Program-made: the position numbers and the translations under genes | The notes under the pieces: model-generated | Databases searched by the model: none | What the model saw: only the letters and a program-made list of their open reading frames with translations | Told to the model about the DNA's origin: nothing | Assembly: GCA_014685065.1 (NCBI GenBank) | Contig: GCA_014685065.1_4092.2 | DNA: 64,000 bases | Source of the DNA: a phage | Reading direction: 5' to 3' (one strand) | In this document: in pieces, positions 19,299-21,485 of the stretch | How the letters are laid out: every line of letters starts with the position of its first letter | Numbering within the stretch: position 1 is the stretch's first letter

Positions 19299-19535
19299 AT
19301 GAAACTATCTTTTATACGATTAGCTGAATTCTTCGGTACTGATGTAATTACTTTACAACAAATTGCAGATAATACTTCATTAAGTACACAAGAAGTACTT
19401 GACTTAGATGTAATTCAGTGCGATAATACTTCCATCGATTTCAAAGAAGGTCTTGTCGAAAAAGATAAGATTAAAGCTAAGATTAATGGTGCTGGGCGGG
19501 TTCAGTACTGGAAAGGAGTATTAAGTAATGTTTGA
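19299..19535 (+). CDS. hypothetical protein
   Basis: RBS AGAGG before ATG. Confidence 0.5.
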   Translation: MKLSFIRLAEFFGTDVITLQQIADNTSLSTQEVLDLDVIQCDNTSIDFKEGLVEKDKIKAKINGAGRVQYWKGVLSNV

Positions 19536-20646
19536 ACAGTATTATTTAAATGAAGATGGTGAAAAAGTTTATTTTCATGAAGAACTTGGTATGCGTTTTG
19601 AATGGATGAAGCCTGAAGATATAAAAAGGGTTTCAAAAGGACTCACTGCTAAGGATCATGTTGATGACATAGAAGCAAAATTAAAAAACAAAGATATTGA
19701 CAATATTACTATTATTGGATTATCAGTTAAATCATCACGTGAGTTTGGTAAAAACGGAAATAGTAATAACAATTTACTGATTATGTATAATGGGGTATTG
19801 TATGATAATTATAAAATAACTGGTTTAAAAACAAAGCTTGAAAAAATAACAAACAATAAATTCAAGCCATCATTTACCTATACAGATGAAAATTATTATT
19901 ACTATGTAACCAAATTGGGTTCTCTTGAGGAAAGAGGATGCTATATATATGAAAATGAACATTTAGACAATGGGATAATGTCATATATTAAATTCACATA
20001 TTCCGATGGATTTACACAACCACGAAGAATAAATGATATAATTACAAAAACATCAATGAACGTTAGATATTTTATAACACCTGAAATGCGTGAAACAATT
20101 GCTAACACACGCTGTAATGAACTAGGATATACATTAAAAGAAGTTTACAAGAAATCAAATGGTCGTTATTATGTAAAATATATATGTGATAAAGGACACG
20201 AGTGTAATCAAGACTATTATGCGTTTACTAGTAAACAAGCACAAAAGTGTGGATGCTGTTCCCAATTAGAAACACACTCATTTGGTCATAATGATTGTAA
20301 AGAGTTTTTGAGAGGAATGTTTGTTACTGAAAGAGAGAAAACATTTCCTGATTTAAAAAATAAATCAAAACTTCCATATGATTTTTATATTCGTGATATT
20401 AATACGTTATTTGAATATGATGGTAGTAATCACTTTGAAGAACGTGAATCAGGATGGGGAAACGGACTTATGAGGAAAAAACACGATAAAATCAAAACAG
20501 AATACGCAATAAAAAATGGATATAACTTCATTCGTATTGCGTATTATGAAGACCATATTGGAGCATTGAAATCTTTCCTTAAACTCATTGAAGAGAATCC
20601 AGGAAAGCAAATCGTGCAGATCTATGGTGAAGTACAAATTATCTAA
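19528..20646 (+). CDS. putative nuclease with C-terminal Vsr/DUF559-like domain
   Basis: C-terminal LPYDFYIRD...LFEYDGSNHF...HDKIKTEYAIKNGYNFIRI recalled as Vsr-like; Cys cluster CDKGHEC..CGCC upstream. Confidence 0.45.
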   Translation: MFEQYYLNEDGEKVYFHEELGMRFEWMKPEDIKRVSKGLTAKDHVDDIEAKLKNKDIDNITIIGLSVKSSREFGKNGNSNNNLLIMYNGVLYDNYKITGLKTKLEKITNNKFKPSFTYTDENYYYYVTKLGSLEERGCYIYENEHLDNGIMSYIKFTYSDGFTQPRRINDIITKTSMNVRYFITPEMRETIANTRCNELGYTLKEVYKKSNGRYYVKYICDKGHECNQDYYAFTSKQAQKCGCCSQLETHSFGHNDCKEFLRGMFVTEREKTFPDLKNKSKLPYDFYIRDINTLFEYDGSNHFEERESGWGNGLMRKKHDKIKTEYAIKNGYNFIRIAYYEDHIGALKSFLKLIEENPGKQIVQIYGEVQII

Positions 20647-20650
20647 AACA

Positions 20651-20686
20651 AAAGGGTTGACTTCGGTCAGCCCTTTTTGCTATAAT
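20651..20686 (+). terminator. bifunctional terminator/promoter module, long form
   Basis: hairpin 20651-20676, TATAAT 20681-20686. Confidence 0.7.
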
Positions 20687-20714
20687 CATTTCATCAACTG
20701 AAGAGGGTAAAGAA

Positions 20715-21485
20715 ATGACCAGAGAAGCACGCAGCATTCAAATTCAGAAAAACTTCAACTCCATGATGGTTGCTCTTGAGTGTTTGCTCGATGATAGCAG
20801 TACTGTAAAAAGTATGGTTGTCAGTGGTGCTCCTGGTGTTGGTAAGACTTACACCTTGTCCCAACGTCTCCAGAAGGCTCATGACGCAGCAGAATGGAAC
20901 GTAGCTACTATCAGTGGTAAGATGACTACACTGGCTCTGTACGAAGTTCTGTACAAGAATCGTCACAGCACCAACGTGTTAGTACTGGATGATATGGACA
21001 GCATCTTTGATTCTGAAGACGGTATGAACCTGCTCAAAGCTGTTTTGGATAGTGGTAAGCGTACTGTATCTTATATGACTAGCTCTAAGTACTTGAGCAC
21101 TAACGGCATTCCTAATAGCTTTGATTTTAATGGTCGCATCGTATTCATTACTAACAAAGATTTAGCGTTAGATGCTAAAGCTAAAACTAAAATGTCTGCT
21201 CATTATGCTGCTCTTATGTCTCGTTCTGTGTACGTGGATTTACAGATTCAGACTAAAAGTGATATCATGATTCATATTGAAAATGTAATGACTAAGACTA
21301 ATATTCTTGCATCTAAAGGTGTTAACAGTAACGGTAGTAAAGCAATTCTGAATTGGATGTTGAAGCACGAAGATTCTCTTCGTTCACCTTCACTGCGTAT
21401 GCCACTGTTGATTTCGGCAGTATATAACAACAACCCATACGATTGGGAAGAACAGTGCGAAAACTTGTTCCTTGAAAAAATTTAA
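20715..21485 (+). CDS. P-loop NTPase (AAA-like ATPase)
   Basis: Walker A GAPGVGKT, Walker B-like VLVLDDMD. Confidence 0.7.
   Translation: MTREARSIQIQKNFNSMMVALECLLDDSSTVKSMVVSGAPGVGKTYTLSQRLQKAHDAAEWNVATISGKMTTLALYEVLYKNRHSTNVLVLDDMDSIFDSEDGMNLLKAVLDSGKRTVSYMTSSKYLSTNGIPNSFDFNGRIVFITNKDLALDAKAKTKMSAHYAALMSRSVYVDLQIQTKSDIMIHIENVMTKTNILASKGVNSNGSKAILNWMLKHEDSLRSPSLRMPLLISAVYNNNPYDWEEQCENLFLEKI

Follow-up and report, generated by a model that had tools for sequence, protein, structure and literature searches.

The stretch of DNA analysed here, hereafter the window, is a 64,000-nucleotide piece of phage sequence (GenBank assembly GCA_014685065.1, contig GCA_014685065.1_4092.2) from an Asteriusvirus jumbo coliphage; over positions 18000-22000 it is 98.9% identical, along the full length, to phages vB_EcoM_G17 (hereafter G17) and Sharanji. 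Our analysis indicates that the open reading frame (ORF) of 372 amino acids (aa) located at 19528-20646 can with good confidence be regarded as a putative free-standing homing endonuclease gene (HEG), a selfish insert in a variable spot of the genome. The gene next to it, which encodes a 256-aa ATPase, is a widely conserved resident phage gene that flanks the landing site, a neighbour of the endonuclease and not its partner. The HEG reading is favoured because residues of catalytic type are conserved in the 372-aa protein, members of its family bear Zn-finger modules, the protein matches nuclease families of the PHROG database, and the gene shows a presence/absence pattern among relatives. The features of the locus are listed below; coordinates and lengths of the endonuclease and ATPase ORFs are exactly those given in a preliminary description made from the letters of the sequence.

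19528..20646, plus strand: endonuclease gene, 372 aa, ORF confirmed
20715..21485, plus strand: gene of a NrdC.10-family AAA+ ATPase, 256 aa, ORF confirmed
19299..19535, plus strand: 78-aa gene of the uncharacterised family phrog_34150; the left insertion boundary lies at its stop codon
19528..19857, plus strand: N-terminal domain of the endonuclease (aa 1-110), confidently modelled, unclassified
20080..20262, plus strand: Cys-rich, putative Zn-finger region (aa 185-245), resembling CapR/DUF4379 treble-clef DNA-binding modules
20290..20553, plus strand: predicted Vsr/DUF559-like PD-(D/E)XK nuclease domain (aa ~255-342), with E270, D285, E296, D298, H302, D320 and K323
20554..20643, plus strand: conserved 30-aa C-terminal tail (…LKSFLKLIEENPGKQIVQIYGEVQII), almost invariant in the homologue alignment
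19240..19272, plus strand: left hairpin, upstream of the 78-aa gene, a PeSL-like composite terminator/promoter
20654..20686, plus strand: right hairpin, between the endonuclease and ATPase genes, PeSL-like; annotated as a terminator in G17

The endonuclease protein

The C-terminal domain of the 372-aa protein is predicted to adopt a Vsr-like PD-(D/E)XK fold. An AlphaFold model built on the homologue alignment had a mean pLDDT of 79, with good confidence for the N-terminal domain and the C-terminal third, and a Foldseek search with this model gave Vsr as the top match with a probability of 0.99, identity to the Vsr mismatch endonuclease, the best structural match, being 8-10%. A search of a database of 5.8 billion proteins rendered only 23 homologues. 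Their alignment is variable in the N-terminal and central parts and shows strong conservation over the last ~115 residues, where E270, D285, E296, Y297, D298, G299, H302, D320 and K323 reach a level of at least 90%. The order of these residues, E…D…(E-x-D)…H…D (E270, D285, E296/D298, H302 and D320), follows that of the EDxHD composite motif, which was defined for the I-Bth0305I family, with the free-standing Hef enzymes of T-even phages also included (PMC3239194). In addition, the protein matches PHROG families of homing or intron-encoded nucleases (phrog_559, 7e-24; phrog_9084, 4e-16; phrog_7140, 2e-10).

A Cys cluster of the form C220-x5-C226…C241-x-C243-C244, whose C241 and C244 are near-invariant in the homologues, is found at the position where the homologues match the Zn-finger families CapR (6/23, best E = 3e-37), DUF4379 (12/23) and DUF723 (5/23). 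The 372-aa protein itself rendered a weak Pfam match to CapR, with an E value (0.24) below the cut-off. Zn fingers of these three families are DNA-binding modules of phage HEGs (Barth et al. 2023, PMC10448857), and target recognition by the 372-aa protein is presumed to be provided by this region. The N-terminal domain is 42% identical, over its first ~90 aa, to that of a 379-aa endonuclease of phage PBECO4, the C-terminal domains of the two proteins being different. Both the C-terminal Vsr/DUF559-like nuclease signature and the Cys cluster, which the preliminary description had recorded, are borne out, the former by the predicted PD-(D/E)XK fold and the Foldseek result and the latter by C220, C226, C241, C243 and C244.

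Direct domain searches with the 372-aa protein gave little. No match to the Pfam families DUF559 (PF04480) or Vsr (PF03852) was obtained even at E <= 1, and a single one of the 23 homologues matched DUF559 (E = 0.008). NCBIfam and PADLOC scans rendered nothing meaningful, and no match at E <= 10 came from phmmer or profile searches against the full set of PDB sequences. The designation of HNH endonuclease, carried by relatives of this protein in GenBank (e.g. in phage vB_Ec-M-J) and by PHROG 559 in its name, was considered and rejected: there was no HNH match in Pfam and the predicted fold is PD-(D/E)XK. For these endonucleases HNH is a misnomer.

With regard to the C-terminal end, the endonuclease closes with ~30-50 residues (…YEDH…LKSFLKLIEENPGKQIVQIYGEVQII; window 20494-20646) that recur in near-identical form, in the DNA as well, in proteins with unrelated N-terminal two-thirds. 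A tail that looks homologous (…FLAKHEGEYIIERDINGIFGEVIL) closes endonucleases of the family phrog_681, and dimerisation or use as a recombination handle are candidate roles for such a tail.

A variable slot upstream of the ATPase gene

The gene-by-gene comparison of the locus took in 15 distinct Asteriusvirus relatives, among them G17 as a reference of 99% identity; Sharanji, which carries the same allele, stands outside this comparison. What lies upstream of the ATPase gene varies, five of the 15 relatives having no endonuclease gene at this place and five more having endonucleases with a different C-terminal domain. The arrangements are as follows (denV is the T4 endonuclease V homologue described further below).

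ph0011 and fEgEco12: denV, then the ATPase gene directly
SP27 and UE-S1: gene of 119 aa (annotated with 136 aa in UE-S1), followed by the ATPase gene
SD-15_S21: homologue of the 78-aa gene, then the ATPase gene
G17 and JP4: 78-aa gene and the same 372-aa endonuclease gene
vB_Ec-M-J: 78-aa gene and a 371-aa gene, its product 60% identical to the 372-aa protein
ELP-22 and SHEFM2K: 77-aa gene and a 474-aa gene (same nuclease domain, different N-terminus)
EJP2: 78-aa gene, a 365-aa relative and three small ORFs
121Q and UB: 79-aa gene, a 487-aa phrog_681 endonuclease and a 93/108-aa ORF
PBECO4: 78-aa gene, a 379-aa phrog_681 endonuclease and a 60-aa ORF
slurp01: 79-aa gene and a 628-aa phrog_681 endonuclease
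E9.1: 79-aa gene and a slurp01-type endonuclease split into 449 and 193 aa

Homology at the DNA level between the window and its relatives stops at 19523-19530, that is, at the endonuclease start codon, and is back at 20646-20650, at the stop codon; in the comparison with the 474-aa genes of ELP-22 and SHEFM2K it returns already at 20494, the last ~150 nt being common. The empty site of SD-15_S21 could be aligned to both junctions, and this places the point of insertion precisely: the 78-aa gene ends to its left with …AAGTAA and the hairpin, AAAAGGGTTGAC…, follows to its right. On these results, the endonuclease gene behaves as a discrete mobile insert, bounded by the stop codon of the 78-aa gene on one side and by the hairpin on the other. 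That the 78-aa gene might itself be part of a mobile cassette was also considered and was discarded, SD-15_S21 having this gene without an endonuclease gene. A permissive Rfam scan for intron RNA found no group I or group II intron and just two chance matches to small RNAs, and the endonuclease gene is therefore taken to be free-standing. Its ATG overlaps the stop codon of the 78-aa gene by 8 nt (ATGTTTGA), so that translation of the two genes is probably coupled; a separate PeSL-type hairpin promoter for the endonuclease gene is absent.

Of 50,697 phage records, no more than 3 had the allele of the window. The Vsr-like nuclease domain, on the other hand, was detected by tblastn in 180 phage records belonging to many phage groups, often with a homing or intron-associated annotation. 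Further members of the family are found at other, unrelated places of Asteriusvirus genomes, such as between baseplate genes (121Q) or upstream of a tRNA nucleotidyltransferase gene (A4).

The C-terminal domain that distinguishes the phrog_681 occupants of the slot from the 372-aa protein is, from our reading of its motifs, suspected to be T5orf172-like. This was not confirmed by Pfam, which gave no T5orf172 or GIY-YIG match for the occupants of 121Q, PBECO4 and E9.1 even at E <= 10. The two ORFs of E9.1 (locus L007, 2526-4489) correspond, with 99-100% identity, to the two halves of the 628-aa gene that is intact in slurp01 (locus L017, 1769-3655), and the split gene looks like a decaying HEG.

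Hairpins flanking the 78-aa and endonuclease genes

A 33-mer, GGGTTGACTTCGGTCAGCCCTTTTTGCTATAAT, is found in identical form at 17958, 19240 and 20654 and with up to three mismatches at 7351 and 13463, and was not found in any of 100 shuffles. It folds into a hairpin of 11-12 bp (-17.6 kcal/mol, z about -5 to -6, with -5.7 at the left copy) followed by a T-run, and within it a promoter, TTGACT-18-TATAAT, is predicted which matches at 11 of 12 positions. A simple terminator scan missed these hairpins, which were recovered by folding, and the G17 record labels the same sites as terminators. The five near-identical PeSL-like copies, all on the plus strand, are scattered over the plus-strand early-gene region.

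The right copy occupies the 68-nt spacer between the endonuclease and ATPase genes, which contains no gene. It is predicted to end the transcription unit formed by the 78-aa and endonuclease genes and to supply a promoter to the ATPase gene. According to the preliminary description the ATPase gene followed "after one module", which stands if the hairpin is counted as a module; otherwise, the two genes are directly adjacent. In SP27 and UE-S1 a single hairpin takes the place of the succession of hairpin, 78-aa gene, endonuclease gene and hairpin seen in the window, an arrangement that looks like a precise deletion from repeat to repeat.

These elements resemble the PeSL of T4-type phages (PMC2839356; Comeau et al. 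2014, PMC4122927) in that, between genes, a predicted strong sigma-70-like promoter is combined with a predicted GC-rich terminator hairpin and in that the elements are repeated and flank variable cassettes; relatives keep a single hairpin where the cassette would be. In T4-type phages, PeSL cassettes drive the excision and insertion of the genes flanked by them (Arbiol et al. 2010, PMC2839356). The present case differs in that the phage is an Asteriusvirus jumbo phage. We found no prior description of PeSL-like hairpins for Asteriusvirus.

A block of sequence shared with JP4

Comparison with JP4 rendered only 2 differences over 19497-21304, a segment that takes in the endonuclease gene and, of the ATPase gene, the 5' ~590 bp. 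On the upstream side, ~300 bp contain 18 differences, and on the downstream side 300 bp contain ~47. The near-identical block thus consists of the endonuclease gene and about 650 bp downstream from it, with flanks that differ, and one of its edges coincides with the start of the endonuclease gene. Edges of recombination blocks at nuclease genes have been reported in other phages (PMC10448857).

Homing and alternative explanations

If the gene is a HEG, its N-terminal and Zn-finger modules would recognise a long site and its C-terminal nuclease of EDxHD type would cut it. In a mixed infection, the enzyme would cleave the genome of an endonuclease-less phage near the slot, and recombinational repair from the genome that carries the gene would then copy the endonuclease gene together with neighbouring sequence. 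As the simplest guess, the target would lie across the point where the 78-aa gene meets the hairpin, a junction that the insertion itself would disrupt. Recombination between the repeated hairpins could provide a second route by which the cassette is deleted or moved. A target within the first ~550 bp of the ATPase gene, protected by polymorphism, was also contemplated and was rejected: SP27, which has no endonuclease gene, is identical to the window over 20750-21249.

Several points weigh against the gene being a HEG of this kind. The middle of the AlphaFold model (aa 110-180) is of low confidence. The links at the level of sequence profiles to Vsr, DUF559 and I-Bth0305I are non-significant, and the assignment to a nuclease family therefore rests on the predicted structure and the motif. 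As to the motif, the distance between D298 and H302 is one residue shorter than in Vsr and I-Bth0305I and corresponds to that of DUF559 (D-x3-H). With a spacing of DUF559 type, the equivalence with EDxHD is inferred from the order of the residues. Regarding the JP4 block, the identity of SP27 to the window over 20750-21249 extends to the ATPase part of that block. The block accordingly shows mosaic exchange with a boundary at the endonuclease gene, and is no proof of co-conversion driven by the endonuclease, because a phage lacking the latter has the same ATPase part. Cleavage, target site and homing are predictions. Finally, recombination mediated by the hairpins could by itself yield the pattern of a variable slot.

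This last point is the core of the alternative that survives best, although we consider it unlikely: the gene could be a domesticated or decaying relative of HEGs that no longer homes, its variable presence being due to shuffling of the cassette through the hairpins. The same low probability covers, jointly, uses for which such a protein could have been co-opted, including exclusion of competing phages, degradation of host or satellite DNA, and regulation. Identical PeSL-like repeats do flank the cassette, with SP27 and UE-S1 resembling precise repeat-to-repeat deletions, the split endonuclease genes of E9.1 look like decay in the very same slot, and co-option of HEG DNA-binding domains is known from elsewhere (CapR, Odn; PMC10448857). 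Nevertheless, the putative catalytic residues are all intact and conserved, and the ORF is of full length and almost identical in three phages. Recombination between hairpins alone is insufficient because in most comparisons the breakpoints coincide with the endonuclease ORF, not with the hairpins. Moreover, a site that is held in turn by different endonuclease genes is a typical sign of active HEG turnover.

Within the HEG reading, it can also be the case, although we hold this as a tentative proposal on the doubtful side, that the slot between the 78-aa and nrdC.10-like genes is a contested landing pad at which nuclease heads are swapped on a common DNA-recognition scaffold. The occupants would share the N-terminal domain and, in part, the C-terminal tail, with heads of either Vsr/DUF559-like or phrog_681 type. 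The locus would then add an architecture made of a CapR-type Zn finger and a Vsr-like nuclease to the EDxHD family, one that possibly targets and co-converts the conserved ATPase gene.

The ATPase gene and its relation to the endonuclease gene

The 256-aa protein shows the attributes of AAA+ proteins: a Walker A motif (GAPGVGKT, residues 38-45), a Walker B motif (VLVLDD, residues 88-93), sensor 1, arginine residues, and an alpha-beta-alpha core with a helical lid in a model with a pLDDT of 93. Both Walker motifs as well as N147, R170 and R228 are invariant across 39 homologues, and the Walker A/B ATPase recognised in the preliminary description is thus a real P-loop protein with an AAA+ fold. 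It belongs to phrog_1250 (E = 2e-103) and is ~40% identical to T4 NrdC.10 over 81% of its 256 aa. The T4 protein (~322 aa) has a ~70-aa N-terminal extension that is absent from the 256-aa protein, which corresponds to positions 77-326 of the PHROG profile. NrdC.10 is a conserved ORF of T4-like phages in which an AAA motif was noted earlier and whose function is unknown (PMC1524935). The T4 gene is located in our comparison as follows.

T4 nrdC.10: locus L022, 2767-3735

ATPase homologues turned up in 1306 phage records; every one of these except one had just a single place that matched. Annotation of the family in GenBank is inconsistent, with "thioredoxin", "clamp loader of DNA polymerase" and "transcriptional regulator FleQ", all three of them mislabels, beside "regulator of chromosome condensation" and "archaellum component FlaC". 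The gene mobD of wild-type T4, which encodes a free-standing endonuclease, lies in the neighbourhood of nrdC.10.

The preliminary description had implied that nuclease and ATPase form a pair and had proposed that co-occurrence in related genomes be looked at. A two-gene module of nuclease and AAA+ ATPase, acting in defence, in anti-defence or as an ATP-dependent nuclease, now appears very improbable and is largely refuted by the co-occurrence data. The two genes are adjacent on the same strand, 68 nt apart, the near-identical JP4 block spans the nuclease gene together with the 5' two-thirds of the ATPase gene, and ATPase-nuclease pairs are common among defence systems. The ATPase gene is, however, constant in all 15 relatives, whether the nuclease is present, absent or replaced: it occurs without an endonuclease gene in SP27, UE-S1, ph0011, fEgEco12 and SD-15_S21, and next to endonucleases with another C-terminal domain in 121Q, UB, PBECO4 and slurp01. 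The ATPase family is far more widespread than the nuclease allele (the 1306 records mentioned above versus 3), and paralogous nucleases are found elsewhere without the ATPase. In four contigs with more distant ATPase homologues, the called neighbours were unrelated and none of them matched a nuclease family of Pfam. PADLOC gave nothing for the nuclease and noise at the P-loop level for the ATPase. What speaks against a functional module is thus the constancy of the ATPase, the predicted terminator/promoter between the two genes, the wide occurrence of each family on its own, and the lack of a match to known defence models.

The adjacency of nuclease and ATPase genes is thus that of a selfish gene beside a conserved gene at the landing site, where the ATPase gene is at most DNA that is co-converted, or possibly DNA that is targeted. 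In a phage, such an adjacency should not be read as a pair of defence type without a check of co-occurrence. Among the contexts that had been offered for it (homing, defence and anti-defence), homing is retained for the nuclease alone and a paired system is abandoned; the caution that function could not be assigned from sequence was excessive for the nuclease and is fair for the ATPase.

Least probable of all is that the protein works as a DNA-repair nickase of Vsr type together with its neighbour denV, a notion suggested by the top structural match to a mismatch endonuclease and by the location of denV 1 kb upstream, and opposed by the low identity to Vsr, by the large N-terminal DNA-binding modules typical of HEGs, by the sporadic distribution of the endonuclease as compared with the presence of denV in all the relatives inspected, and by the two PeSL-type hairpins and two other genes that lie between both genes.

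Relationship to known homing endonucleases

The putative HEG of the window shares with I-Bth0305I (Bacillus phage 0305phi8-36) and Hef (PMC3239194) a Vsr-like PD-(D/E)XK nuclease, as predicted here; the order of its conserved residues is compatible with EDxHD. It differs from I-Bth0305I in having a putative CapR/DUF4379-like Zn finger and an unclassified N-terminal domain instead of NUMOD/helix-turn-helix repeats, in being located outside any intron or intein, in an extra conserved C-terminal tail of 30 aa, and in the spacing between the third and fourth motif positions, which is D-x3-H here, as in DUF559, and x-x4-H in Vsr and I-Bth0305I. Repeated Zn-finger modules as carried by members of its family, domain shuffling between HEGs and recombination-block boundaries beside conserved genes are also found with the T5orf172 HEGs of ICP1 and other phages (PMC10448857). 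The nuclease head of those HEGs is T5orf172, whereas that of the 372-aa protein is Vsr/DUF559-like.

The seg and mob HEGs of T4 resemble the case described here in their intron-free, intergenic insertion next to conserved genes and in their presence or absence among close relatives. With SegG and MobE, flanking markers are co-transferred, a behaviour that can be likened to the mosaic pattern of this locus. The seg and mob enzymes are of GIY-YIG and HNH type, whereas the 372-aa protein is predicted to be of PD-(D/E)XK type.

Free-standing HEGs of Vsr-like (EDxHD) type, CapR-type HEG modules, HEG hot-spots and PeSL-flanked cassettes have all been described already. Mildly new is their combination, with a Vsr-like head on a CapR-type scaffold and an N-terminal domain shared across different C-terminal types, in the setting of a jumbo phage. 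The value of these observations lies mostly in annotation and interpretation. In public records the endonuclease gene goes by the name of "hypothetical" or, erroneously, of "HNH endonuclease". The locus moreover provides a clean example, in a jumbo phage, of HEGs that appear to replace one another beside a conserved gene and are bounded by promoter/terminator repeats, and the slot agrees with present thinking about the part that selfish nucleases play in phage mosaicism. Should the enzyme be active, its long modular recognition region could be of modest interest for a rare-cutting nuclease.

The wider neighbourhood

Upstream of the 78-aa gene, at 18019-18534 on the plus strand, lies denV, which encodes a homologue of the pyrimidine-dimer glycosylase T4 endonuclease V (Pfam Pyr_excise, 6e-15; phrog_1183, 9e-59). 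The denV product of the window has an acidic C-terminal extension of ~35 aa, and denV is shortened to 144 aa in PBECO4, slurp01 and SHEFM2K. A second slot with variable endonuclease content is located 1.5 kb upstream from the first (window 17951-18019, with the hairpin at 17958). Here JP4, fEgEco12 and vB_Ec-M-J have a 137-aa gene annotated as "HNH endonuclease" just before denV, and the window has the hairpin alone.

Positions of the second slot in the loci of the relatives: L004 1098-1511, L019 598-1011 and L009 1-40

Directly 3' of the ATPase gene, at 21551-24331 on the plus strand, eight small paralogous genes (104-141 aa) follow one another in tandem. Adjacent copies share 75-78% identity at the DNA level, and the hydrophobic sequence of their products has the look of multi-pass membrane proteins. 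The number of copies varies among relatives, with, for example, one fewer in E9.1 and in vB_Ec-M-J. On a larger scale, the GC skew of the window flips sign at ~24000 and at ~42000, which suggests a block of minus-strand genes between two blocks of plus-strand genes.

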